Below, piece after piece: positions 5,111 through 51,862 of a stretch of 52,139 nucleotides of DNA; the stretch's first letter is position 1, and each line of letters starts with the position of its first letter. Below the pieces are notes generated by a model. The model made no database searches. It worked only from the letters and a program-made list of their open reading frames with translations, and was not told where the DNA came from. Origin of the DNA: a virus (lineage: Duplodnaviria > Heunggongvirae > Uroviricota > Caudoviricetes). Both the position numbers and the translations under genes were made by a program. The stretch is from positions 1 to 52,139 of IMG/VR virus record IMGVR_UViG_2541047752_000007. The stretch is one strand, 5' to 3'.

Positions 5111-5143
5111 AATGTTATTTCCTCATGTTTACATTTTGTATAT

Positions 5144-7696: not shown

Positions 7697-7821
7697 TAAG
7701 GTAAGTGCCTTTTTGTGCCTTCCGTTATCTTTTTCCTTGCGTCTTTGCAAGTATGGCCTTACCTTGTCTGCAAGTTTACAAAATGGAATTTTAAGATCAA
7801 GGCTTAAAATACACGTTTTGT

Positions 7822-7850
7822 GACTTGCATCAAACTTTTTGAGGTTATAG
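7822..7850 (+). promoter_or_regulatory. weak PRM-like promoter for the repressor gene, possibly leaderless mRNA
   Basis: GTGACT-N18-TTATAG ending about 9 nt before the cI ATG at 7860; no SD upstream of ATG. Confidence 0.3.
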
Positions 7851-7859
7851 GGTAGCGAC

Positions 7860-8507
7860 ATGAAAACAAAATGGTATGACTTAGCAAAGCAGCTCATGCG
7901 GGCGCAGGGCATGAGCCAGGATTCGCTCGCGGATCGTATGGGGATAACTAAAGGCGGCCTGTCACACTGGCTGAACGGTCGCCGAGAGCCAAATCTTGAA
8001 GATATTGCGCGGATTATGCGCGAGCTTGGTCGTCGGCAGTTTACTGTTACACATGATGGCATGGTCATTGATGATTCTGTTTCTAATACACTTCAGGCCG
8101 TGCCGCCGCGTGATTTAGGTAGTTACCCGGTTATTGACTGGAAGGACACAGTAAACAATATGGATGACGCAAGGCGTTCAGCATTACGACACGTTACGAC
8201 TAGCGTTATTTGTTCAGATGACAGTTACTGGCTGGTTGCCAAAGGTGAATCAATGAACGCGCCGCAGGGGTTGAGCATCCCGGCGGGGACGATGATACTT
8301 GTGGACCCGCACGCGCCAGCTATTGACGGCAAACTGGTTATAGCCCAGCTTGAGGAAGGGCAGATACCGACGTTTAAACAGTTGATTATTGATGGAGGTC
8401 AAAGGCTTTTACGTTCGCTCAATCCGCTGTATCCGCCAATCCCTATGAATCCAGAATCAAAAATTATAGGCGTGGTGGTTGATGCGAAGATCGTAAACCT
8501 GCCATAA
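7860..8507 (+). CDS. CI-like phage repressor (HTH_XRE plus S24 LexA-like peptidase)
   Basis: 215 aa; N-terminal HTH MSQDSLADRMGITKGGLSHWLNGRR; C-terminal GESM (Ser) and VVDAK (Lys) autocleavage dyad. Confidence 0.85.
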   Translation: MKTKWYDLAKQLMRAQGMSQDSLADRMGITKGGLSHWLNGRREPNLEDIARIMRELGRRQFTVTHDGMVIDDSVSNTLQAVPPRDLGSYPVIDWKDTVNNMDDARRSALRHVTTSVICSDDSYWLVAKGESMNAPQGLSIPAGTMILVDPHAPAIDGKLVIAQLEEGQIPTFKQLIIDGGQRLLRSLNPLYPPIPMNPESKIIGVVVDAKIVNLP

Positions 8508-8538: not shown

Positions 8539-8630
8539 CCTGGAAAACACCAAAACGTAAACAGAAAACGTTATTTATTATTTAAATATCAATGGCATAT
8601 AAAATATTTTAAAAAAGTATACAAAATGGA

Positions 8631-8659
8631 TTGACTCGATGTTTTACGGGGCGTATATT
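8631..8659 (+). promoter_or_regulatory. strong sigma70-like promoter (pL-like) for rightward early operon
   Basis: TTGACT-N17-TATATT; immediately preceded by the recurring tatacaaaatgga motif. Confidence 0.55.
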
Positions 8660-9007: not shown

Positions 9008-9298
9008 ATGAGCGTTACAATTATATATGGTAAATGTGATAGCAAAATGAATGCCAGGGAACGCAGAAGGATAAAAAGAGAAAACGAAAGAAAATCATCA
9101 CCTGCAATCAATAAAACAGACAATGTGGATAAAGCTATTCGATTTGCAAACGAGGAAAGATGCAAACCAAATAGCATTAAAGAACGTCGCAAAGGATCAG
9201 TAAAATGGTATACGGAAAATGAAAGCGGCAGCTACTACCACGCAACGCAACCACGCCATTTAGGGGAAAAACCCCTGGATAAAGTCCGCTACCATTAA
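9008..9298 (+). CDS. basic protein with arginine-rich N-terminal motif, possible N-like antiterminator
   Basis: 96 aa; NARERRRIKRENERK resembles an arginine-rich RNA-binding motif; first gene after promoter and long leader. Confidence 0.35.
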   Translation: MSVTIIYGKCDSKMNARERRRIKRENERKSSPAINKTDNVDKAIRFANEERCKPNSIKERRKGSVKWYTENESGSYYHATQPRHLGEKPLDKVRYH

Positions 9299-9328
9299 TA
9301 CAAAATGTAAACATCCGGAGATGACATT

Positions 9329-13994: not shown

Positions 13995-14534
13995 ATGAAA
14001 AATGATTACGGCGGCAGCCATACGCCGAAAGAAATAAAGGACTTATGGCAAACGCCAAAACCCGTTTTTAGAGGAATGGATCGGGAATTCGAGTTCGTCG
14101 CGGATGTGGCGGCAAACAAGGAAAACGCATTAATCCCGAGATATATAACCGAAGAAATGGACACGCTCCATTATCCGTGGGGAGCGGTGGCGATGCCTGG
14201 TGAGTATGTCTGGATGAATCCGCCATATTCTAATCCGGGACCATTCGTTGATAAGGCGGCGCTTGAACATCAACGAAATCACATTGGCTGTGTAATGCTA
14301 TTGCCCGCTGACATTTCTGTTAGCTGGTTTATGAACGGCGTGGAGACGGCAAACGAATGCCGATTAATCACGCGCGGGCGGCTGGCGTTTATCAATGCTG
14401 CAACAGGGAAACCAGTAAGCGGGAACAATAAGGGGAGCTTGTTCTTGATCTGGCATCCACGATGCAGACATGAATGTATTTTCACGCAGATAACACGTAA
14501 AGAGCTATATGCAAGAGGTGCAGATAATGACTAA
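13995..14534 (+). CDS. dam: phage-type DNA N6-adenine methyltransferase (Dam family)
   Basis: 179 aa; LWQTPKPVF N-terminus and catalytic NPPYS motif. Confidence 0.8.
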   Translation: MKNDYGGSHTPKEIKDLWQTPKPVFRGMDREFEFVADVAANKENALIPRYITEEMDTLHYPWGAVAMPGEYVWMNPPYSNPGPFVDKAALEHQRNHIGCVMLLPADISVSWFMNGVETANECRLITRGRLAFINAATGKPVSGNNKGSLFLIWHPRCRHECIFTQITRKELYARGADND

Positions 14535-16262: not shown

Positions 16263-16422
16263 TGTTTACAAAATGGCGTCATTGTGTGATGTGGATCACA
16301 TAATGGCGCTTTATTGTTTGTTCGCATGTATCCGTTTTGTATACTTCAAACAAACAAAATGCTCTTTAAAAATCCGGTAACGCTGAAATGCGTAAAAATC
16401 ACCTGAAAAAGGAGAGAGCATT

Positions 16423-17801: not shown

Positions 17802-18530
17802 ATGAATTTAGAATCCATTCTAAAATTCCACTTTCCCAAATCACCGCGATTGTCAGACGAAAGCAGGGGAACATCACCTGATGCACTTAATACGACGGAT
17901 GCGCTTACCGCCGCTGGTATGGCGCAATCGCGCGTAGCGCTTGGTTACAGCGCTTTTTTGGGGAAGATGGAACTATCGCAAACTGAAAAACACAGGGCCG
18001 TAGTTTTGCTTACAGAGCGTTTAAGAGCTATGGCAAAAGATTACGAATACGTTATGGAGTTGGACGATGAGCGACGCAATGATCTTATTATTCTTGTTGC
18101 CGTTTTCGCGTTTCGGGATTACTGCCAGAGTGCGGCGACCGAAAAGGTTTGCCCTAAATGCGGTGGAAACGGGCTTTTACCGCATCCATGCTGCGAATAC
18201 ACATCAACGGTTTGTTCGCGGTGCAACGGGAAAGGCTACGTTAAAAACCATTGCCAGCGGTGCAAAGGGCGCGGCGAGATACCGGATAAAGCAGCCAGTG
18301 AAGCAGCGGAAATGCCAGTTTTCAAAACGTGCCAGCATTGTGGCGGGCGCGGGTACTCGCGTTTCCCGGTAGATCTTGTCCGACAGGCGGTTAATCAGCT
18401 TGTTTTCCCGGTAAGCCGATCAACATGGTGGAAGAAATACAGGGTTTTCTATGAGGACGCCATAGCGGAGCTATTTAAAGAAGAAGCCCGCGCGGAAAGC
18501 GAAATTAAACGAGTGACACGGGGTGAATAA
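17802..18530 (+). CDS. Q-like late-gene antiterminator
   Basis: 242 aa; four CxxC pairs (CPKCGGNG, CSRCNGKG, CQRCKGRG, CQHCGGRG); follows ninG-rusA. Confidence 0.7.
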   Translation: MNLESILKFHFPKSPRLSDESRGTSPDALNTTDALTAAGMAQSRVALGYSAFLGKMELSQTEKHRAVVLLTERLRAMAKDYEYVMELDDERRNDLIILVAVFAFRDYCQSAATEKVCPKCGGNGLLPHPCCEYTSTVCSRCNGKGYVKNHCQRCKGRGEIPDKAASEAAEMPVFKTCQHCGGRGYSRFPVDLVRQAVNQLVFPVSRSTWWKKYRVFYEDAIAELFKEEARAESEIKRVTRGE

Positions 18531-36976: not shown

Positions 36977-37200
36977 CTCCTACCGCTTATTATGATTTGC
37001 TAAATTCTTCCTTTAACTTATTTATACACGCATATTGTTTATTTTTTAAGTGCTTTTAACATTTCTTCGATGAAATCCGCATAGCGTTCATGTTCGTTGG
37101 GGCGGTAGTTTGCGTTTTTCATTTTCTTGTCCCCTTTTGCTTCCTCCGGTTAATCCGGCCTTTTAAATCCATTTGCTCTATCCCTTCCCTTTAGCTTCTT

Positions 37201-37240
37201 TATACAAAATGTATTCGTTGAAATGAAGCCATTTTGTATA
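37201..37240. repeat. perfect 11-bp inverted repeat upstream of tape measure gene
   Basis: tatacaaaatg - 18 bp spacer - cattttgtata; 40 bp upstream of TMP start. Confidence 0.8.
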
Positions 37241-37279
37241 AAATAGAGGCATACATCACATTCTGCATGAGGTTAAATC

Positions 37280-40659: not shown

Positions 40660-40772
40660 TTTTGGGCCTCACTTGCTGGTACCGCTTTTCTTCTTGCTTC
40701 CTGTATACAGCTTGTTGCTTCATGTGTGAATCCATATTGTAAACTAGCTATAATTCTTGTGATGAATATCTC

Positions 40773-40796
40773 ATTTTTCGCGTAGAAGCGCGTAAA
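40773..40796 (+). promoter_or_regulatory. conserved 24-bp motif upstream of tail gene M (copy 2)
   Basis: atttttcgcgtagaagcgcgtaaa, followed by tatacaaaatgtaa motif and RBS. Confidence 0.5.
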
Positions 40797-40830
40797 GATA
40801 TATACAAAATGTAACTTACAGGAGGGGGGT

Positions 40831-41833: not shown

Positions 41834-42082
41834 CTATAGGCTATCACGCAGATAATTAACGCCCTTATCAGTGACGAATGAATGATTAACCTGGTTTTCA
41901 TCCGTCATGATGATGAATAACTTTTCCTGTAGGTATTTCGCTTTCGGGTACAGCGTTAAGCAGACCTGGTACAAAATCCCGCGCTCAATCAGCAAATCAA
42001 TAAATTCGTGCTCATGATAACCGATAAGGCGGGCGGCCTGCTTCAACGTGTACACATAATCACTGTGATTGCGCCGCGCCAT
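41834..42082 (-). CDS. putative HTH DNA-binding protein
   Basis: 82 aa; YTLKQAARLIGYHEHEFIDLLIERGIL helix-turn-helix-like. Confidence 0.4.
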   Translation of the reverse strand: MARRNHSDYVYTLKQAARLIGYHEHEFIDLLIERGILYQVCLTLYPKAKYLQEKLFIIMTDENQVNHSFVTDKGVNYLRDSL

Positions 42083-42090
42083 ATTGCCAC

Positions 42091-42438
42091 CTATTTGTCG
42101 AACGCTCCAAGATTATCTATACAGAAATCCTTTGCCGCTTTTTCGTATTCGCGTTTTGCTTGCGGATCGTCAGCCGGGAAACCTTTTGCGTGTATTTCAC
42201 CAGGGCAAGACTGATCCATAGAGTCTGCAAAATTAACATTGAAGTTAACATTAATATCTTTCGGGTTCATATCTTCCACCTCATCAACTATCTGTACCGG
42301 ATTAGCAGCATATTTCACTGGATGGCCTAAACTACATTCAAGAATCCTGCCTTCTTCCAGGGCTACTTCTTCGCTATCAAATAATCCGAAACACTCCTTT
42401 CTGCCACTTAACCACACATCAAGACTGTATTTTTTCAT
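42091..42438 (-). CDS. hypothetical protein (about 115 aa from MKKYSL)
   Basis: ORF-track 42091-42540; internal start chosen to avoid long overlap. Confidence 0.4.
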   Translation of the reverse strand: MKKYSLDVWLSGRKECFGLFDSEEVALEEGRILECSLGHPVKYAANPVQIVDEVEDMNPKDINVNFNVNFADSMDQSCPGEIHAKGFPADDPQAKREYEKAAKDFCIDNLGAFDK

Positions 42439-42606
42439 TTTTGTTAGCCTCATATTTGACAGGTTCGATCTGGTATCCCAAAAGGCGGTCATCCTCAACA
42501 AGTAAAAGCGCGTCAACCAATGCTTCCCCCTCGTCGTCATACAGGGCGATAACCTTTTCCCTACCGTCTGTCATGAATGCCGTCAACTTCCATAGCTTTT
42601 CAGTCA
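42419..42606 (-). CDS. hypothetical small protein (62 aa)
   Basis: MTEKLWKLTAFMTDGREKVIALYDDEGEALVDALLLVEDDRLLGYQIEPVKYEANKNEKIQS; GGAGGTG RBS; first gene of moron operon. Confidence 0.45.
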
Positions 42607-42736
42607 TAACGCACCTCCGCGCCATTTTGTTAACTCCTCCTTCGTTTGAGTAAAATATACATATTGTAAAAACCACGATCAATCCATTTTGGTATGATTT
42701 GGCGTGACGCAGATCACAAAATGACAAGGTGAGAAA

Positions 42737-43441
42737 ATGCGCAATATTCCGAGAGAGATGATTATTGATTCCGTCGATGCCGGAGTTGGCGCGGTCATTG
42801 ACTTATTTGAACTGGACCTTACTCCCCTGGGAGGCGAGGTTATCCGCTTCCATTCCGGCGCGAACGGCTATTACGGCCAGGTTATCTGGAAGGGAGTAGC
42901 TTACAACAGCTACCCGATCGAGGCGACGGGCTTCGAAATGAAAAATGAGGGTGTTTATTCGCGGCCTCAAATGATTGTAGCCAATATCGGCGGACTCATT
43001 ACGGGGATGAACAACGATTTTAACGACCTTAGAGGAATGAAGGTTACGCGCCGCCAGGTGGAGGTGAAATATCTTGACGCCGTTAACTTCCCTAACGGTA
43101 ATCCAGACGCAGATCCATCTATTGAGGCTGTATCTTTTTACGTCGTTGAAGCAATGAGCGAAGAAACAGCGGATCAGGTGCAGTATGAACTGTCAACGCC
43201 AATTGATGCAGATAAAGCTGTCATCCCTGGGCGCACCATCCTTGCTGACGTTTGCCAGTGGCAATACAGAGGCGACGGGTGTATGTACGCTGGCGGACCA
43301 GTAGCAAACGATAAAGACGAGCCGACAAGCGATCCTAAAGCCGACAGATGTAGCCACCGTCTGAGCGGTTGTCGTTTACGTTTCCCGCGTCCAAATCCGT
43401 TACCAATTTCCTGTTTCCCCGGTTCAAGTAAGGTGGGCTAA
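42737..43441 (+). CDS. L: minor tail protein L
   Basis: 234 aa; LDLTPLGGE, ARFLDAVNFxNGN-like YLDAVNFPNGN, AVIPGRTILADVCQWQYRGDGC align with remembered lambda gpL. Confidence 0.85.
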   Translation: MRNIPREMIIDSVDAGVGAVIDLFELDLTPLGGEVIRFHSGANGYYGQVIWKGVAYNSYPIEATGFEMKNEGVYSRPQMIVANIGGLITGMNNDFNDLRGMKVTRRQVEVKYLDAVNFPNGNPDADPSIEAVSFYVVEAMSEETADQVQYELSTPIDADKAVIPGRTILADVCQWQYRGDGCMYAGGPVANDKDEPTSDPKADRCSHRLSGCRLRFPRPNPLPISCFPGSSKVG

Positions 43442-43443
43442 TT

Positions 43444-44175
43444 ATGGCACTTGAAGACAAAATGGTTCGCTACGCCGCAGCTCACCCGCGTGAGGAAGTT
43501 TGCGGCCTGGTGATAAATAACGAATATTTTTACCCGTGCGCTAACGTATCTGAAACGCCATACAACAGCTTCAAAATTTCGCCGGACGATTACATCAAAG
43601 CTGACGAATTAGGCGTTATAACCGCCGTTTTTCACTCTCACGTTGATGATATTCCGGTATTGTCTGCGCTGGATCGACAACAACAGGTTATTTCCGGCCT
43701 CCCGTGGCTTTTATGTTCCGGTGGCAGGGTTAGAAAATTCCGCCCGGTAGCGCACCTGTTAGGCCGAAAATTTGAGCACGGGAAAACAGACTGCTACGCG
43801 CTTTTCCGCGACGCATATCACCTTTGTGGCGTGGATCTGCCGGACTTCGAGCGCCTTGATGGCTGGTGGCTTCGCGGTGAAAACCTGTATTTAAAAAACT
43901 TGCCGCGAAACGGGTTTTATCAGGTTGATGCGCAAAGCATCCAGCCAGGTGACGTAATAATCAGGCAGCCGTTCAAAGGCGCTGACCCATGCCACGCGAT
44001 GATTTACCTGGGCGATAACACTGTTTTGCATCATGACAATGCCGGACTGTTAAGCCGCCGCGAGCAAATGCGGCCCGCTTATGTTCGACAAACGCATTCA
44101 ATATGGAGATCTGATAAATGCTCAAATTTAGATTTACGGGCAATCTTCGAAGATATTACAGCAAAGTGTGTTTAA
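43444..44175 (+). CDS. K: tail assembly protein K (MPN/JAB plus NlpC/P60-like)
   Basis: 243 aa; HSH.D metal motif, downstream Cys/His region; position after L. Confidence 0.8.
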   Translation: MALEDKMVRYAAAHPREEVCGLVINNEYFYPCANVSETPYNSFKISPDDYIKADELGVITAVFHSHVDDIPVLSALDRQQQVISGLPWLLCSGGRVRKFRPVAHLLGRKFEHGKTDCYALFRDAYHLCGVDLPDFERLDGWWLRGENLYLKNLPRNGFYQVDAQSIQPGDVIIRQPFKGADPCHAMIYLGDNTVLHHDNAGLLSRREQMRPAYVRQTHSIWRSDKCSNLDLRAIFEDITAKCV

Positions 44176-44648
44176 ACGTTGAAACGCCAGCGCAAGGGCT
44201 TCGCTTATTGACCGCGCAGAATCAGGAATTCAAGAAGGCGTTTTTAAACACTCCTTTGCGCTTACGAATTGCCGGGAAAGATTACGACGAAAAGACCGCG
44301 CCAGCTGCGGTTAATAGCAAATATCCAGATGGAACTACTGTGATTATTGCGCCAATAGTGGAAGGTGGTATTGCAGGTATTGGTGTGATCGGCTGGATTA
44401 TGATTGGGATATCAGTTGTCAGTGTCGCTTTTTCTATTTTTATGTCTCGCAACATGAAGGTAAAAACATCATCAGAAAGCGCACAGGACAACACCATAAC
44501 TAATAACACTTACACCAGCATAGAAAACAGGGTAGGCCAGGGTAGACCAGTGCCAATTTTATTAGGCGAAATGAAAGTAGGTTCAAACGTCGGATCGTTA
44601 GGCATAGACACAACCAACAATAAAGACGCCTTAGACGTTGTAAGTTAA
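44118..44648 (+). CDS. I: tail assembly protein I
   Basis: 176 aa; hydrophobic Gly-rich central segment; overlaps K end as in lambda. Confidence 0.7.
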   Translation: MLKFRFTGNLRRYYSKVCLNVETPAQGLRLLTAQNQEFKKAFLNTPLRLRIAGKDYDEKTAPAAVNSKYPDGTTVIIAPIVEGGIAGIGVIGWIMIGISVVSVAFSIFMSRNMKVKTSSESAQDNTITNNTYTSIENRVGQGRPVPILLGEMKVGSNVGSLGIDTTNNKDALDVVS

Positions 44649-44662
44649 CAGGAGAAATAACC

Positions 44663-47600
44663 ATGAGTAGCGGCGGCGGCAAAGCAAAAACACCGACTTT
44701 GATTAATGATAACCTTTATCACAAACAGTTTTATCGTGTGCTGGATATTATTTCGGAAGGTCCGATTTATGGCCCTGTCAATACCAGTGCGCCATTAAAT
44801 AGCGTAATGCTTAATGACACTCCTGTAACTGACGCGAACGGTAATACCAGTATCCCTGGTGTTAGCGTTGCGTGGCGAAATGGTACTGCCGACCAGTCAC
44901 CAATCAACGGCTTTAATGCCATCGAATCAACGGTAATGGTTAACGCGCAGGTGAAGCACGACACGCCACTTGTAAGGACGGTATCAGATCCGAACGTGAC
45001 GCGAGTCCGGTTAAATATTGGCGTGGATTCACTGGTGGAAAGCGATAGCCAATCAAACCAGAAAGAAACATCTGTCATTATGGCGATCGACGTTAAACCG
45101 TCCTCATCCTCAACATGGTCGTCTATTAAGGCCGTGCAAATAGGTCCAGGTAAAATCAGCGGAGAATACCTTGAAGCGCATATTATTGATGCGCCAGATG
45201 AAAAGCCGTTTGATATTCGCGTTCGCCGCGTAACCGCTGATAACACAAGTGATCTATTGCAGAATGATACGCGGTGGAGTAGCTACAGCGAAATAATCGA
45301 CGATAATTTGTCTTATCCTCACACTGCTGTAGCAGGCGCGGTAATTGATCACGATCAGTATACTGACACACCTACACGCACTTATCACCTGCGTGGGCTT
45401 ATTGTTGACGTGCCTGATAACTACGACCCGGAAACGCGCACTTATTCCGGTTTATGGCTTGGCGGATTTAAACAGGCTTACACTAATAACCCTGCGTGGA
45501 TCTTTCGTTACCTGGTTAAAAACGAGCGTTTCGGCCTTGCCCGCCATGCTGGTTATATCGACGTTGACGACGGCGCATTATACACACTTTCCCAATACTG
45601 CGACCAGTTGGTCGATGATGGTTACGGTGGCCTTGAGCCTCGCGTGACGCTTAATGCGTACATAACAGAGCAAATGAGCGCCCGCGATTTGCTGGACAAT
45701 ATCGCCGGGATGTTCCGTGGCATCGCGTTATGGGACGGGCAACGTCTTACCGTAATGATTGATGCACCGCAAGATCCAATAGCCACCATTACGAATGCAA
45801 ACGTCGTTGATGGCGCGTTCACTCGTTCGAGTATCGCCCGTGCGGAATGCTACAACGCCGTGATCGTATCCTGGACTGACCCGGAAAACGGGTGGGAGCA
45901 GTCAAAAGAGTATGTAGCAGATGATGAGCTAATCGCCCGCGATGGTTACAACGAAACCACGATGGAGGCGTTCGGCTGTACGTCACGCGGGCAAGCGTAC
46001 CGCGCGGGCAAATGGCTGATAGAAACAGCAAAACGCGAGCCGTCAAAATTCACGTTTAAAATGGCACGTGACGCGATTCACTTTACGCCAGGGGATATAG
46101 TCGAAATCCTCGACAATAACCGCGCAGGTGCGCGTTTAGGTGGGCGTATCGTGGCGAACAATGGAAACGTGATAACGGTCGATAAGGTTGACAGCGACTA
46201 TATCACAGCAGGCGACACCATCAGCTTACTCGACAGCGACGGCAAATTTAAAAAACATCAGATTACTGGTGTAAACGGAAACGAAATCACACTAGCGGCG
46301 GCCCCGGCATGGATTCGGAACGGTACTGTATTTGCTGTATCCACCGAAGCGGCAAAACCCGTTTTATGCCGGATCACCAGTGTAGCCGAAACCGAAAATA
46401 ATAGCGTGTATACCATCGAAGCAGCGCAACATGACCCGAACAAACAAGCGGTAGTCGATGAAGGCGCGATATTTGAAATCAACAACGACACGCTTAATCA
46501 CTTCCGTGTCCCGAACATTGAAAACCTGAAAGTGGTAAACATCGGATCTGAAACAGTTCAATGCCGAGCTACATGGGAAACACAGACAACCACGCATCGC
46601 ATGACATTCGAGATCCGCATATACAATACTGATGGTGCGGTGGTTAAAAGCTACGAAACAACGAAATACAGTTATGATTTTTATGGTATTGACGCTGGCG
46701 CGTATTCGTTAGGCGTTCGCGGAAGAAACGATACTGGCATGAAAGGCGCTGAAAGCATTGTTGATCTTGTTATTGGTGCTCCAGCCGCGCCAGTTGGCGT
46801 AAATTGGGTTCCAGGCGTATTTCAGGCGACCGTGTACCCGATAAGCAAAACCACGCTTACTACCGATACGTCATATGAATTCTACTATGCAGGGGAAAAT
46901 CAGATCACAGATCCGGCAAAAATAACCACGTCGGCACAGTTTACCGGGCGCGGGTATCAGTGGACGTTCGGCGGCATGAATACGGGCCATACTTATTACG
47001 TTTATGTGCGCACTCGTAATGCTTTTGGTGTGTCTGATTTCGTCGAGGCATCAGGTAAGCCAACAGAGGATTTTGACGAAATCACTGATTACGTTACAAA
47101 GGATGTAATGGAATCAGAGCAATTCAAGGAGATGATTAGCGACATTAAAGATCTTGGTGATCGCACTGATATTGTAGAAGGAGCTACCGAAGACCTTAAA
47201 ATAGCTACAGAGGATCTTAAAGCTGACACAGATACACTTAAAAAAGACACCGAAGACCTTTATAAAAAAGTCGAAGAAAACGCCGATGAAATAGGCAAAC
47301 ATGAGGTAAGAATAGACTCATTAGAGGTATCAAACGAAAACGTTAACAACGAACTGGCACAGGCAAAAGCAAGTTTACAAAACGCTTCGCTTGCTCTGAT
47401 CAATAACTCGCTTGCTCAAACTAACACGCGGGTTACTCTTACCGCTCAATATAAGAAAGGTCGCAACGAAACAAAGGCACAGATTGACCGCATCGACAAC
47501 GTTATCGCAGAGGAGAAAAAAGCGACAGCGGAATCACTGGAAACCATCACAGCCGAAATAAATACGATAGACTCAAACATCAAAGGAGAAATAGCCCGCG

Positions 47601-48715
47601 TAGACAAAGCAATAGCAACCGAAACGCAGGCGAGAACGGAAGCTATAAGCAACGTTAACGCCAGTATCAGCAGCCTGGAAAACAAAACTGATGCGAGCGT
47701 TTCTCGTCTCGATCAAGCTATCGCTGACGAATCAAGCGCCCGCGCTCAGGCAATATCAGGAATCAGTGCGGAGCTTGGTCTTGTTGAAAATGAGGTTGAT
47801 AAAAACAGCAACGAAATAGATCAGGCGAAAGCAAGTCTGCAAAACGCCTCGATTGCACTTATCAACAACTCAATAGCGCAAAGCAAGATGAGCACCGTTA
47901 TTGAGGCGAAGTACAGGAAAGGCCAGACAAAAACAAAAGCGGAAATAGCAAGGATCGACACAGCAATAGCAGACGAAACCCAGGCCCGCGCGGAGGCTAT
48001 AGCATCACTTGAAGCCAATATTAATGAAAACATTTCAGCAAAAATAACAGATATATCAACGGCGCTCGCAACTCACGAGGCATCAAGTGCTGAAAAATTT
48101 GTCAAAATATCGGCATCTTTCGACGATGTAAATTCAAGTATCACGGAATGGTCACAGGCTATGGCAACGGCAGACGAGGCATTATCAACCAAAATTGATC
48201 AGCTAACAGTTACCGTTAACGGAAACACAACAGCTATCGAGACGACATCGAAAGCATTAACTGATTTCAAAGGTGACGTTAACGCATCATATTCAATCAA
48301 GATTGCCACTGATAACAACGGAATGAAATATGCCACTGGCATGTCGCTTGGCCTGACTGGTAGCGGTACGAACGCTCAATCGCAGTGTATTTTCCTCGTC
48401 GATCGCTTCGTGTTAATGACGGCAGCAAACGGCACATACACAACGCCTTTCTATGTCACTGGCGGAGCAATGTATGTACGTGAAGCGTTTATTAAGGACG
48501 CATCAATCACCAACGCGAAAATAGGTTCTTACATCCAGTCAAATAACTATGTTTCCGGCAGCACAGGCTGGAAACTTGATAAATCAGGTACATTCGAAAA
48601 CTACGGATCAGTAAGCGGTGAAGGAGCAATGAAATGGACGAACACAACTATCTCAGTAAAAGATGGTAATGGCGTGTTACGCGTCCAGGTTGGGCGAATT
48701 ACCGGATCATGGTAG
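44663..48715 (+). CDS. J: tail tip / host-specificity protein J (central tail fiber)
   Basis: 1350 aa; position after I; conserved J-like N-terminal two thirds; coiled-coil repeat region near C-terminus. Confidence 0.85.
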   Translation: MSSGGGKAKTPTLINDNLYHKQFYRVLDIISEGPIYGPVNTSAPLNSVMLNDTPVTDANGNTSIPGVSVAWRNGTADQSPINGFNAIESTVMVNAQVKHDTPLVRTVSDPNVTRVRLNIGVDSLVESDSQSNQKETSVIMAIDVKPSSSSTWSSIKAVQIGPGKISGEYLEAHIIDAPDEKPFDIRVRRVTADNTSDLLQNDTRWSSYSEIIDDNLSYPHTAVAGAVIDHDQYTDTPTRTYHLRGLIVDVPDNYDPETRTYSGLWLGGFKQAYTNNPAWIFRYLVKNERFGLARHAGYIDVDDGALYTLSQYCDQLVDDGYGGLEPRVTLNAYITEQMSARDLLDNIAGMFRGIALWDGQRLTVMIDAPQDPIATITNANVVDGAFTRSSIARAECYNAVIVSWTDPENGWEQSKEYVADDELIARDGYNETTMEAFGCTSRGQAYRAGKWLIETAKREPSKFTFKMARDAIHFTPGDIVEILDNNRAGARLGGRIVANNGNVITVDKVDSDYITAGDTISLLDSDGKFKKHQITGVNGNEITLAAAPAWIRNGTVFAVSTEAAKPVLCRITSVAETENNSVYTIEAAQHDPNKQAVVDEGAIFEINNDTLNHFRVPNIENLKVVNIGSETVQCRATWETQTTTHRMTFEIRIYNTDGAVVKSYETTKYSYDFYGIDAGAYSLGVRGRNDTGMKGAESIVDLVIGAPAAPVGVNWVPGVFQATVYPISKTTLTTDTSYEFYYAGENQITDPAKITTSAQFTGRGYQWTFGGMNTGHTYYVYVRTRNAFGVSDFVEASGKPTEDFDEITDYVTKDVMESEQFKEMISDIKDLGDRTDIVEGATEDLKIATEDLKADTDTLKKDTEDLYKKVEENADEIGKHEVRIDSLEVSNENVNNELAQAKASLQNASLALINNSLAQTNTRVTLTAQYKKGRNETKAQIDRIDNVIAEEKKATAESLETITAEINTIDSNIKGEIARVDKAIATETQARTEAISNVNASISSLENKTDASVSRLDQAIADESSARAQAISGISAELGLVENEVDKNSNEIDQAKASLQNASIALINNSIAQSKMSTVIEAKYRKGQTKTKAEIARIDTAIADETQARAEAIASLEANINENISAKITDISTALATHEASSAEKFVKISASFDDVNSSITEWSQAMATADEALSTKIDQLTVTVNGNTTAIETTSKALTDFKGDVNASYSIKIATDNNGMKYATGMSLGLTGSGTNAQSQCIFLVDRFVLMTAANGTYTTPFYVTGGAMYVREAFIKDASITNAKIGSYIQSNNYVSGSTGWKLDKSGTFENYGSVSGEGAMKWTNTTISVKDGNGVLRVQVGRITGSW
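47360..48010 (+). repeat. intragenic duplication in J C-terminal coiled-coil region
   Basis: QAKASLQNASLALINNSLAQ...YKKGRNETKAQIDRIDN repeated as QAKASLQNASIALINNSIAQ...YRKGQTKTKAEIARIDT about 460 bp later. Confidence 0.7.
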
Positions 48716-48764
48716 AATTAAGGGGCCGACTTGTTCGGCCTCATTTTATTATGGAGGTGTAATA

Positions 48765-49076
48765 ATGGCTACTTTCGGCGTGGCAACATGGGACGCCAAC
48801 GGAAATCCTAATAACTACGGAATTAAACCTTCCGTAGTAGTCGGCTATATTTCCCTATCTTCCGGGCAAGTATCCGGCACATATAATTTTACCGTTCCTA
48901 CAGGATGTAAATTATCATATGCTATGACGCTTGATTATGGCACAACATCATCAACGCGCAGAAAGATCAGTATTTCAGGCGGTACTGTTTCCATTTCCTC
49001 AGCAGGTGATACGGTTGGTGCTAATATATGGCCCGCATCGCAGTGTGAACTGGTTATTTTTACGGAGAGCGCATAA
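48765..49076 (+). CDS. hypothetical tail-associated protein (MATFG paralog 1)
   Basis: 103 aa from MATFGVATW; GGAGGTG RBS. Confidence 0.45.
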   Translation: MATFGVATWDANGNPNNYGIKPSVVVGYISLSSGQVSGTYNFTVPTGCKLSYAMTLDYGTTSSTRRKISISGGTVSISSAGDTVGANIWPASQCELVIFTESA

Positions 49077-49676
49077 ATGGCTACTTTCGGCGCTTATTTA
49101 CGTTTAAGTAATGGCAATATTTTCGTAACTCCAGATTCGACACCTATGTGCCTTTATTCGCGGGTTGCTCTAAATTCAAGCCAACAGCAAACAATAGCCG
49201 TTCCCAATGGTAAGCCTGTAATGGTATTCATAAAAAACACAAACGATACCGCTACTGGTGTAGCCTATCGCAATTCATCGTCTACCATAGTGATCCCACC
49301 TGGGAATGGTTATGCGTATATATTCAGCATCTTCCCACAATCGCGTCCTAAGTGGGGGATGGCTATATGGAACGCTTCAGGGGAACTGGTATTGACAAAC
49401 GAATCAAGAATATTAACAGACATTGTTACGGTAGGCACGGCTGGATCGAGTGGTGGGATTTATATTGATCAGACGTTATCAGGATCTTATGCGGTAGTTC
49501 CTCAGATATTGGGGGCCGCTGTAGGTATGGGTTCCGCAACAATATATACAGAATCATACTACAACGGCAGCAATACACGAATTCGCGGGAAGATGGTTGG
49601 TAGCTTGCAACAGATTTACGGTTACATTAATCACGGGAACGCTATCACCGCCATTAAAACCGACGCCTATGATTAA
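49077..49676 (+). CDS. hypothetical tail-associated protein (MATFG paralog 2)
   Basis: 199 aa starting MATFGAYL; N-terminal similarity to preceding gene. Confidence 0.45.
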   Translation: MATFGAYLRLSNGNIFVTPDSTPMCLYSRVALNSSQQQTIAVPNGKPVMVFIKNTNDTATGVAYRNSSSTIVIPPGNGYAYIFSIFPQSRPKWGMAIWNASGELVLTNESRILTDIVTVGTAGSSGGIYIDQTLSGSYAVVPQILGAAVGMGSATIYTESYYNGSNTRIRGKMVGSLQQIYGYINHGNAITAIKTDAYD

Positions 49677-49912
49677 TTCAGTTCCGGGCAATCCGTTTTC
49701 TTGAAGTGGTCAACGCTTACCCATTGGAAGTTAAACGGATACCCGGCCTTAACCATTTTATGACCGCCAACATCCGCGACACCGAAGACTGCAACCGCAT
49801 ATTCATTACCTCCAGCCTGATAAGTTGCCGTGCATTCACGTTTCGGCATATCAGCGCAACCAACCATACCAGCGACCATTGCAGCTATAGCGATATTTTT
49901 AAAGCCTTTCAT
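49673..49912 (-). CDS. small lipoprotein, Cor/Llp-like superinfection-exclusion candidate
   Basis: 79 aa from MKGFKNIAIAAMVAGMVGC (lipobox MVGC); GGAGGA RBS; reverse strand just downstream of J. Confidence 0.45.
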   Translation of the reverse strand: MKGFKNIAIAAMVAGMVGCADMPKRECTATYQAGGNEYAVAVFGVADVGGHKMVKAGYPFNFQWVSVDHFKKTDCPELN

Positions 49913-50071
49913 TGTCTTATCCTCCATTGTTCCGTCGGTTGTAGTATCCATAAACATCGTTTTCTCAACATTGATATAAATCAATAAATACATTTTGTAT
50001 AAACCAGAAATGTAACGCAGATCACAAAATGGTAAAATTACCAGGTTAATTAACATAATGGAGTCATTGCG

Positions 50072-51862
50072 ATGATTTACACAACAGGCACGATAGCCGT
50101 TAGCGGAAACACAGTTACCGGAAAGGGGACTGAATTCAACGCCGCATTATCTCTGATCAGAGTTGGTTGCACCCTTATTGCCATTAGCAATCCGGTGCAG
50201 ATTTTCTCAATCACAGAGGTAAAAAGCGCAACAAGTTTATCAGTAACACCTGCGGCAAGTCCTGCTATTCCGGCTGGAACTAAATTTAGCATCCTGCTTT
50301 CAGATTCGATCTCTGTGGATGGTCTTGCTCAGGATGTCGCCGAAACACTGCGTTACTATCAGGGCAAAGAATCAGAAATAGCGGACGCAGTTGAATTTTT
50401 TAGCGACAACAAAGATGTGATTTCAGCCTCAAAATTAGCATCACAATCAGCTACCACTGCAACCAACGCTGCAACAACAGCGACAACCGCCGCCGATTCA
50501 GCCAAGACATACAGAGACGAGGCCCACGAATACGCCAATCAGACAGCAGAGCCGTACAGATATGTTTTACAGCCGCTGCCGGATGTGTGGATACCCTTTA
50601 ATGATTCGCTGGATATGATTACGGGCTATTCTCCGGGTTATAAAAAAGTGAAGATTGGTGATAATGTGGTTCAGGTTGCCAGTGATAAACAGGTTAATTT
50701 CAGTCGCGCATCAACGGCAACATATATCAACAAATCTGGCGAACTGAAAACGGCGGAAATTAATGAGCCACGATTTGAAAAAGAAGGTTTATTGATTGAA
50801 GGTCAGCGAACCAACTACATGTTGAATTCAGTAACTCCAGCTTCTTGGGGTAAATCTGCAAATATGAATGTCGCTGAGGTTGGAACTGATAGTTTTGGTT
50901 TTACTTATGGAAAGTTTGTTTGTAATGAATCATTAATTGGGCAAAGTACAACCCTTAATATGGCAGCAGTTTCAACCTCGGGGGGGGTCGATGTATCAGG
51001 CGATAATAAGAGTGTGACGACATCGTGCAGATTTAAAACGGATTTGGAACTCCTGTTAAGGATCAGGTTTGAAGCCTTCGATGGCAGCACTTCATCTAAT
51101 CTTGGATATGCCATTGTTAATACGCGGTCTTTATTGGTTGAAATCACCGGTGTAGCTGCCGACAGGCTCACCGCACGAGTTAACAAAGATGAAGCTACGG
51201 GCTGGATTTTTGTAGAGGCAACGATTCAAGCAAGTAAAGAAACTTACATAACCTCTGCAATACAATACGCACCAAAAAAAGGTGGTGTCGTTGAATCTGG
51301 TGACTATATTTATCTGGCCACCCCTCAGGTTGAGGATGGTTCGTGTGTATCATCTTTTATTATATCAGGAACGACGGCGGCGACGCGCGCAAGCGATATG
51401 GTTACAGTTCCGATTAAGAATAATCTTTATAATCTTCCTTTTACGGTTCTTTGTGAGGTACATAAGAACTGGTATAAAACGCCAAATGCAGCACCGCGTG
51501 TTTTTAATATCAGCGGTCATCAAACCGGAGCGGGGATCGAAATGGGGTTTGGTTCATCAGGTAGGTACGACGGTTTTCCGTATTGCAATATAAGTGGTTC
51601 AGACCGACGAATAAATGAAAATGCCGGGCTGAAAAAAATGCTTATTGGTATGCGGGTAAAGTCCGAACGGTCCACATGTGTAGTCAGTAACGGTAAGTTA
51701 AGCAGCGAAACAAAAACAACCTGGACTTATATTCAAAGCTCCGCAACTATTCGTATCGGTGGTCAGACAACGACAGGACAACGTCATTTATTTGGTCATG
51801 TTAGAAATTTTCGAGTATGGCATAAGGCATTAACTGATGCGCAATTAAGCGAAATTGTTTAA
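50072..51862 (+). CDS. tail fiber protein
   Basis: 596 aa; N-terminal MIYTTGTIAVSGNTVTGKGTEF; Ala/Thr-rich stretch ATTATNAATTATTAADSAKTYRDEA. Confidence 0.6.
   Translation: MIYTTGTIAVSGNTVTGKGTEFNAALSLIRVGCTLIAISNPVQIFSITEVKSATSLSVTPAASPAIPAGTKFSILLSDSISVDGLAQDVAETLRYYQGKESEIADAVEFFSDNKDVISASKLASQSATTATNAATTATTAADSAKTYRDEAHEYANQTAEPYRYVLQPLPDVWIPFNDSLDMITGYSPGYKKVKIGDNVVQVASDKQVNFSRASTATYINKSGELKTAEINEPRFEKEGLLIEGQRTNYMLNSVTPASWGKSANMNVAEVGTDSFGFTYGKFVCNESLIGQSTTLNMAAVSTSGGVDVSGDNKSVTTSCRFKTDLELLLRIRFEAFDGSTSSNLGYAIVNTRSLLVEITGVAADRLTARVNKDEATGWIFVEATIQASKETYITSAIQYAPKKGGVVESGDYIYLATPQVEDGSCVSSFIISGTTAATRASDMVTVPIKNNLYNLPFTVLCEVHKNWYKTPNAAPRVFNISGHQTGAGIEMGFGSSGRYDGFPYCNISGSDRRINENAGLKKMLIGMRVKSERSTCVVSNGKLSSETKTTWTYIQSSATIRIGGQTTTGQRHLFGHVRNFRVWHKALTDAQLSEIV

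Follow-up and report, generated by a model that had tools for sequence, protein, structure and literature searches.

The mEpimmI phages are Nus-dependent, non-lambdoid temperate coliphages that were described as a group in 2025 (PMC11893012). That description covers a CI-like repressor, an N-like antiterminator with three nut sites, a Q-like protein and Lpp exclusion lipoproteins, exclusion of the Lpp type having been shown experimentally for mEp021 and mEp010; promoters and operators are not among the features described (PMC11893012). Here, we analysed a phage DNA of 52,139 nucleotides (nt), IMG/VR record IMGVR_UViG_2541047752_000007, hereafter the window, whose relatives are mEp021, mEp013 and MagusPhagus of the mEpimmI group. 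The subject is a 17-mer, ACGCAGATCACAAAATG, repeated upstream of tail gene L and of the tail-fibre gene, and the dyad in which each copy is embedded, which resembles a site for the host regulator CRP. A literature search for promoter or operator mapping in the mEpimmI group, or for CRP control of cor-type genes, returned nothing relevant.

The CRP motif is N3-TGTGA-N6-TCACA-N3, with class I sites at -61.5 and class II sites at -41.5, and a CRP site is also found at +11.5 of lacZp1 (PMC10199772). CRP is part of the activating complex at the malE-malK control region (PMC3161199). The sites between malEp and malKp are like those of the phage in their dyad of 16 base pairs (bp), in the N6 spacing, in the pairing of one consensus half (GATCACA) with a weaker one (TGTAA) and in their position between divergent promoters. 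However, the putative phage sites overlap the rightward promoters whereas the malEp-malKp ones stand upstream of both; moreover, the left halves of the phage sites are never consensus, and the AAATG(G) that flanks them is conserved for another reason. The other relevant systems are the lambdoid morons and cor exclusion genes of phi80, N15, HK022 and mEp167. The phage analysed here likewise has in its tail region an accessory lipoprotein gene with its own (predicted) promoter, and expression in the prophage is likewise expected. Unlike in these systems, the gene opposes the tail operon, and the divergent control region that the two share stays conserved across exchanges of the gene.

A conserved 16-bp dyad at the junctions of the tail operon

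The 17-mer is present exactly twice in the window, both times on the plus strand, and has no third copy there at up to two mismatches; 100 dinucleotide-preserving shuffles gave no match. The identical pair reported in the initial annotation is therefore not due to chance. Both copies lie in divergent intergenic regions, to the right of a reverse-strand gene (42419-42607 and 49673-49912) and ahead of a rightward tail gene, as had also been annotated. The first ends 13 nt before the ATG of L (42737) and the second 40 nt before that of the fibre gene (50072); the two copies bracket L-K-I-J and not one single cassette. The CRP-like dyads that had been proposed around them are present as well, in the forms CGTGA-cgcaga-TCACA and TGTAA-cgcaga-TCACA, each matching 9 of the 10 bases of the TGTGA-N6-TCACA core. 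The elements concerned are the following:

42419-42607, minus strand: first gene of the reverse-strand block 5' of L, 62 amino acids, phrog_29559, function unknown
42703-42718: L-junction dyad CGTGA-N6-TCACA, centre 42710.5
42707-42723, plus strand: 17-mer copy 1, made of the last left half-site base plus spacer (ACGCAGA) and the right half-site TCACA, overlapping the core ACAAAATG of a phage-wide motif
42737-43441, plus strand: tail protein L homologue
49673-49912, minus strand: Cor-type superinfection-exclusion lipoprotein gene, 79 amino acids, phrog_1119 (E 4.9e-23)
50011-50026: fibre-junction dyad TGTAA-N6-TCACA, centre 50018.5
50015-50031, plus strand: 17-mer copy 2
50072-51862, plus strand: tail-fibre gene

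Eighty loci were obtained via the L protein, including 43 close relatives in which L is 84-100% identical. The motif occurs at both orthologous positions in these 43 relatives and was not found at these positions in a lambdoid group whose L is ~71% identical. Among 35 distinct L-junction sequences, CGTGA and GATCAC(A) are invariant and the four central bases variable, with at least 11 forms that include CGCA, TGGC, TTTA, TTGA, CGGC, CAGC, CACA, CTCA, CTTA, CGTA and CGTC. The 33 distinct sequences of the fibre junction read TG(T/C)AA, C, three variable bases and then GATCACAAAATGGTA(G/A)AAT, the right half being TTACA instead of TCACA in four loci. Column entropy at the L, fibre and M junctions is zero across the half-sites and maximal in the central 3-4 bases of the spacer. 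Since the half-sites are conserved and the spacer is free, this pattern is the footprint of a dimeric DNA-binding protein, which speaks for the proposed CRP-type dyad, and we consider it very probable that the dyad is a protein-binding operator.

The constrained unit is the 16-bp dyad (C/T)GTRA-N6-TCACA and not the 17-mer. The latter was rejected as a functional unit: its first five bases are the last base of the left half-site and unconstrained spacer, and just 3 of 34 genomes have two sites that are identical at 17 of 17 positions. Gene conversion was also rejected, since the identity of the two spacers within genomes is not significant (6 vs 3.85 expected, P=0.07). The repeat is real, not a chance event, and probably functional, yet ordinary in kind.

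The tail operon is broken by four reverse-strand blocks, located before the tape-measure gene, the M-like gene, L and the fibre gene. A CRP-type dyad is found at three of these four junctions, the tape-measure junction (37199-37242) being without one. The third dyad has conserved halves and a variable spacer in 41 sequences:

40758-40773: M-junction dyad TGTGA-N6-TCTCA, before the M-like gene (40831)

Moreover, the fibre dyad goes with the leftward gene. Among the loci with a fibre gene, 35 of 40 have the dyad and 34 of these 35 an FNR-like box, and almost all dyad-bearing loci carry a leftward lipoprotein gene, which is one of at least four types. The five other loci lack the dyad, the FNR-like box and the lipoprotein alike, and in three of these a terminator is found immediately upstream instead. 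Hence, the dyad belongs to a conserved control region that receives different exclusion genes and is not an insertion scar. At least four lipoprotein cassettes have this control region in common, with homology breakpoints 25-90 bp to the left, and alignments with relatives that lack the reverse blocks show that homology ends at the gene starts.

Across the window, TGTGA-N6-TCACA occurs six times at up to one mismatch, against 1.46 expected, a count that was reached in none of 300 first-order Markov simulations. Five of the six (7819, 16285, which is perfect, 40758, 42703 and 50011) fall in non-coding sequence, which makes up 13% of the window. At up to two mismatches there is no enrichment (20 vs 20.8 expected). 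The dyad at 7819-7834 is atypical, with the right half TCAAA and a spacer that is conserved since it doubles as a -35; its membership in the family is doubtful.

Predicted promoters and the candidate binder

Judging from the sequence, we estimate at roughly 0.5 the probability that the dyad is the operator of a dimeric regulator, most likely host CRP bound to cyclic AMP (CRP-cAMP), in divergent control regions. CRP-cAMP is the best candidate since the dyads have an invariant half, GATCACA, that is identical to the extended half-site of the CRP consensus, and an N6 spacing. Furthermore, the fibre dyad, TGTAACGCAGATCACA, is identical at 14 of 16 positions to TGTAACAGAGATCACA from the malE-malK divergent control region of E. 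coli K-12, which we take to be a footprinted CRP site; both differences are in the spacer. Among 30 phage products scanned with Pfam or PHROGs, none was a CRP/FNR-family protein.

The promoter-like elements around the two 17-mer copies are:

42654-42682, minus strand: predicted sigma-70 promoter TTGATC-17-TATATT for the reverse-strand block
42690-42698, plus strand: predicted extended -10 for L, TGGTATGAT
49943-49948, minus strand: predicted cor -10, GATACT
49971-49984: FNR-consensus palindrome TTGAT-ataa-ATCAA, TTGATataaATCAA, centre 49977.5
50030-50038, plus strand: predicted tail-fibre extended -10, TGGTAAAAT (TGGTAGAAT in most relatives), conserved

The centre of the L dyad is at ~+5.5 from the start predicted for TGGTATGAT and at ~-63.5 from the leftward promoter. 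The M dyad begins 4 nt after an invariant TATAAT (40749-40754), which puts its centre at +4.5 from the predicted start, and at ~-70.5 of a predicted leftward promoter, TTCACA-17-TATACA. At lac, O1 and the +11.5 CRP site of lacZp1 lie likewise a few bp past the start; unlike for O1, no repressor has been identified here and the promoters are predicted only. At the fibre junction, the TG of TGGTAAAAT is formed by the final two bases of 17-mer copy 2, and the dyad centre is at ~-26.5 relative to the predicted fibre promoter and at -82.5 from the predicted leftward cor promoter. The GATACT of the latter stands exactly 22 nt past the FNR-type box, which is thereby centred at -41.5. GATATT occurs at equal spacing in another lipoprotein cassette, and one of the three cassette types examined has no good -10 there.

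Promoters that depend on both FNR and CRP can have a class III arrangement, as in E. coli ansB. The predicted cor promoter resembles them in its FNR-type box at -41.5 and in a CRP-type dyad about four helical turns upstream; in contrast to ansB, the arrangement at cor is entirely predicted, and its -10 is weak. The FNR-type box suggests that superinfection exclusion in this gut prophage may be under anaerobic control.

A promoter scan found neither a -35/-10 pair nor an extended -10 inside the 17-mer. The initial annotation had considered that the repeat may mark promoters at which tail transcription is re-initiated; predicted rightward extended -10s do stand beside both copies, but the 17-mer is not itself a promoter and sits where an operator would. 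Class II activation of L or of the fibre gene by CRP was rejected, as the starts would fall inside L or inside the ribosome-binding site (RBS) of the fibre gene.

These positions fit a mechanism in which a dimeric transcription factor, with host CRP-cAMP as best candidate, would bind the dyad. Each 17-mer copy would represent the spacer and the right half of the operator, fused at the 3' side to the ACAAAATG core. The dyads overlap the start (L) or the core (fibre gene) of what appear to be weak rightward extended -10 promoters, and their occupancy would hinder these. In the leftward direction, they stand at distances from the accessory-gene promoters that would suit an activator, ~-63.5 at L and ~-82.5 at cor, whose predicted promoter also has the FNR-type box at -41.5. 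The repeat, its conservation, the footprint of the dyad, its occurrence together with the leftward gene and its position relative to conserved promoter-like hexamers are observations; the identity of the binder, the transcription starts and the direction of the regulatory effects are inferred.

Several points weigh against CRP-cAMP. All promoters and start sites are predictions. The distances to the predicted leftward promoters (-63.5, -82.5 and -70.5, all from predicted starts), compared with the functional CRP positions -41.5, -61.5, ~-72, ~-82 and ~-92, give only approximate class I phasing. The left halves are stably sub-optimal for CRP: L has CGTGA without exception, and the fibre junction has TGTAA or TGCAA but in no case TGTGA. 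Four loci have a symmetric TGTAA-N6-TTACA, without both of the G:C pairs that are most important for CRP, and would be better explained by a factor with TGTRA specificity. With respect to these pairs (positions 7 and 16 of the 22-mer), L keeps both (GTGA/TCAC), and the fibre dyad has A in place of the left G throughout and, in the four loci, T in place of the right C. The CRP consensus does not include the AAATG(G) that is conserved after TCACA. Finally, the perfect dyad at 16285 was withdrawn as independent support for CRP, as it is the core of a terminator-like palindrome (16275-16310), in which ATCACA-N-AATGRC, the same 13-mer as in the 17-mer, acts as a repeat unit of its own.

Other known sites were compared with the dyad by eye, without formal tests: those of sigma-54, IHF, TyrR, LexA, PurR and OmpR do not fit in spacing or key positions. 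An immunity operator for the CI-like repressor was also rejected, the early rightward promoter (8631-8659) having no dyad and only the weak, atypical 7819-7834 being found.

Two further elements are located close to the dyads. A perfect AT-rich palindrome in the leader of the fibre gene, GTTAATTAAC (50045-50054), resembles the core of an ArcA box and is kept in all relatives, including those without the dyad. A small hairpin, CGCG-TAGAAG-CGCG (40779-40792), is conserved between the dyad and a copy of the phage-wide motif in the M-like gene's leader and might be a boxB-like element.

A phage-wide motif and other readings of the repeat

The 3' end of the 17-mer overlaps a motif that is spread over the whole phage. 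Its core ACAAAATG is the top 8-mer of the window, with 13 plus-strand copies against 1.3 expected, and ATACAAAATG is the top 10-mer. With a position matrix we found ~18 strong copies with the consensus TATACAAAATGGA, often as a near-palindrome, ATACA-AAA-TGTAT. All of them are in control regions and none in the 17-37 kb head/packaging operon (plus strand unless marked minus):

3989, 5125 (minus), 7773, 8616, 9295, 12726 (minus), 16263, 16326 (minus), 37199: strong motif copies, first part
37223 (minus), 40726 (minus), 40799, 42616 (minus), 42653 (minus), 42678 (minus), 42711, 49984 (minus), 50019: strong motif copies, second part
42678-42697, minus strand: motif copy abutting the leftward -35 of the L junction
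42616-42635 (minus), 42653-42672 (minus), 42711-42730 (plus), 49984-50003 (minus), 50019-50038 (plus): other junction copies

The motif overlaps the -10 or the -35 of most predicted promoters. In reverse, it supplies the -10 of the leftward early (PL-like) promoter, CCATTTTG-TAAACT, and that of P16, CCATTTTG-TATACT, ahead of the boxA-like sequence at 16361. In forward orientation, it lies directly next to the -35 of CAAAATGGATTGAyy-N17-TATATT, a form taken by both the early rightward promoter (8622-8659) and the leftward promoter of the L junction (42691..42654). These two regions share the larger architecture ATAC(A/C)AAAATGGATTGAyy-N17-TATATT (8616-8659 and, on the minus strand, 42654-42697), and the reverse block 5' of L, including an ANT/KilAC-like protein (41834-42082), may be co-regulated with the early genes. 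At the tape-measure junction (37199-37242), a pair of motif copies is arranged face to face at a distance of 24 bp, and the reverse complement of each is the -10 (TATAAA) of the opposite promoter, forming a symmetric and fully overlapping divergent pair.

Distant lineages lack the ACAAAATG motif and have other hyper-abundant 8-mers; the motif is therefore lineage-specific. For instance, the IMG/VR loci L122-L133, which share a methyltransferase-like gene, have 8-mers of their own, AATAGCAC, ACCAATCA and TTTGTTAA, at 10-21 copies per 13-20 kb, and it may be general for lineages to have repeated control motifs of their own. One candidate binder of the ACAAAATG motif is the CI-like repressor. Cluster K mycobacteriophages have start-associated sequences that are likewise short, lineage-specific, present in many copies and often just upstream of an RBS and start, like three motif-type copies of the window:

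5125-5141, 9298-9314, 40799-40818: motif-type copies just upstream of an RBS and start

They differ in sequence and in host, and here the motif is near-palindromic and overlaps -10 and -35 elements. Two of these copies form a second exact 17-mer pair, ATACAAAATGTAAACAT, at 9298-9314 (plus) and 5125-5141 (minus), directly upstream of an RBS and start codon and followed by very similar leader sequences.

The dyad could also be the operator of another dimeric regulator, encoded by the phage or by the host, that would recognize the half-site TGTRA/TYACA and toggle between leftward accessory and rightward tail transcription. We consider this possible, if doubtful. It is consistent with the stable departure of the left halves from the CRP consensus and with the symmetric TGTAA-N6-TTACA loci; the AAATG(G) extension and the symmetry of the 13-mer at 16275-16310 go beyond a CRP core, the ACAAAATG motif that accompanies the dyad is particular to the lineage, and the phage has many small proteins without a known function. 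However, invariant GATCACA with N6 is the CRP consensus, and a near-identical dyad stands in a CRP-dependent region of E. coli. Moreover, no candidate phage protein has been identified, and the absence of the dyad from the early rightward promoter argues against an immunity operator of a CI-like repressor. A broader version, which we regard as rather unlikely, is that a phage-encoded factor reads dyad and ACAAAATG motif as one regulatory code particular to the lineage, the bidirectional modules acting, within a structural operon, as a distributed lysogeny/lysis switch on which host CRP and FNR would be layered.

It is improbable that the conserved 12-mer GATCACAAAATG is simply a variant of the general promoter motif, marking promoters that re-initiate rightward transcription of L and the fibre gene. 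The abundance of the motif in control regions fits this explanation, as do the -10s that the reversed motif gives at the PL-like, P16 and tape-measure junction promoters and the extended -10 formed by the TG of the fibre-junction motif. Nevertheless, the 17-mer has no usable -10 in either direction (its reverse complement gives TGATCT, in which the essential A is missing), there is no room for a promoter between motif and RBS at L, and L-junction sequences vary at the G of ATG. The conserved left half-site at a distance of 6 bp and the freely varying spacer would be left unexplained.

The dyads might also act at the RNA level, as terminator remnants or protein-binding stem-loops, in the manner of the palindrome ahead of P16:

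16275-16310, plus strand: long palindrome with a perfect TGTGA-N6-TCACA (16285-16300)

It spans 30-36 bp, with ATCACA-N-AATGRC present as inverted copies in the two arms; its fold has -18 kcal/mol (z -5.6), a T-rich tract comes after it, and it has a terminator-like scan score and is annotated as TERM_4 in mEp021. The spacer of its dyad is hypervariable in 25 sequences, and a variable loop between conserved arms fits a hairpin as well; furthermore, the minus strand of the fibre copy can form a weak one (z -2.5). However, the arms of the L and fibre dyads pair over only 4-5 bases, and minimum free energy structures bypass the dyad. Their plus strands fold no better than shuffles (z -1.2 and -0.3) and have no U tract after them, the conserved left variants TGCAA and CGTGA are unable to pair with TCACA, and where the 16285 stem has changed on one side, the other side shows no compensation. 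An RNA-level function of the L and fibre copies is unlikely, and as an explanation of the dyads in general hairpins have very little probability. About 60 bp after the palindrome, there is a conserved promoter, TTGTTC-16-TATACT (16318-16345), followed by a boxA-like GCTCTTTAA (16361-16369) with a boxB-like hairpin; the region 16275-16369 is presumably nutR2.

The suggestion of the initial annotation that the repeats are recombination or insertion junctions left by the acquisition of reverse-strand cassettes is largely refuted, since the entire control region with its dyad is common to at least four unrelated lipoprotein cassettes, the breakpoints against cassette-free relatives fall at gene starts, the two copies do not surround one cassette and the 5' part of the 17-mer is hypervariable, even if copies of the general motif stand near some mosaic breakpoints (CCATTTTGTTAAC, 42622-42634, where variable reverse genes meet a conserved intergenic block) and similarity at the fibre junction decays within the dyad in three cassette-free relatives.

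Genomic setting and meaning for mEpimmI prophages

Apart from the tail region, Erf, SSB, DnaB, NinB and NinG were confirmed among the products of the window, together with the following genes:

7860-8507: CI-like repressor, HTH_3 plus Peptidase_S24
13995-14534: Dam-type methyltransferase
17802-18530: Q antiterminator

Several other differences in gene content between the relatives were observed in or near the tail operon. Two plus-strand open reading frames of 103 and 199 amino acids (48765-49676), located between the J terminator (48722-48742) and the cor-type gene, are missing at the same position from mEp021, mEp013 and MagusPhagus. In one relative (L030), a forward-strand HNH/AP2-like endonuclease gene ~160 bp upstream of the M-like gene replaces the control region that in other relatives follows the reverse-strand block before M. 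In mEp021, an HNH gene lies between I and J.

Among the prophages of gut E. coli, the mEpimmI phages form a common group that was described recently (PMC11893012), and their tail operon is unusual in that it is interrupted by four reverse-strand blocks. Our analysis provides a map of the junction control regions, with a CRP-type dyad at three of four junctions, an FNR-type box before the exclusion gene and a phage-wide promoter-associated motif. The dyad is most likely a conventional transcription-factor site that is new for the mEpimmI group, and its value is mainly for the annotation and study of that group. If a phage-encoded factor did read the dyad and the motif as one code, a compact module at each reverse-cassette interruption would switch between leftward transcription of accessory genes expressed in the prophage and rightward transcription of tail genes. 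If instead CRP and FNR control the exclusion lipoprotein and other reverse genes, the phage resistance conferred by these gut prophages would depend on the carbon and oxygen status.

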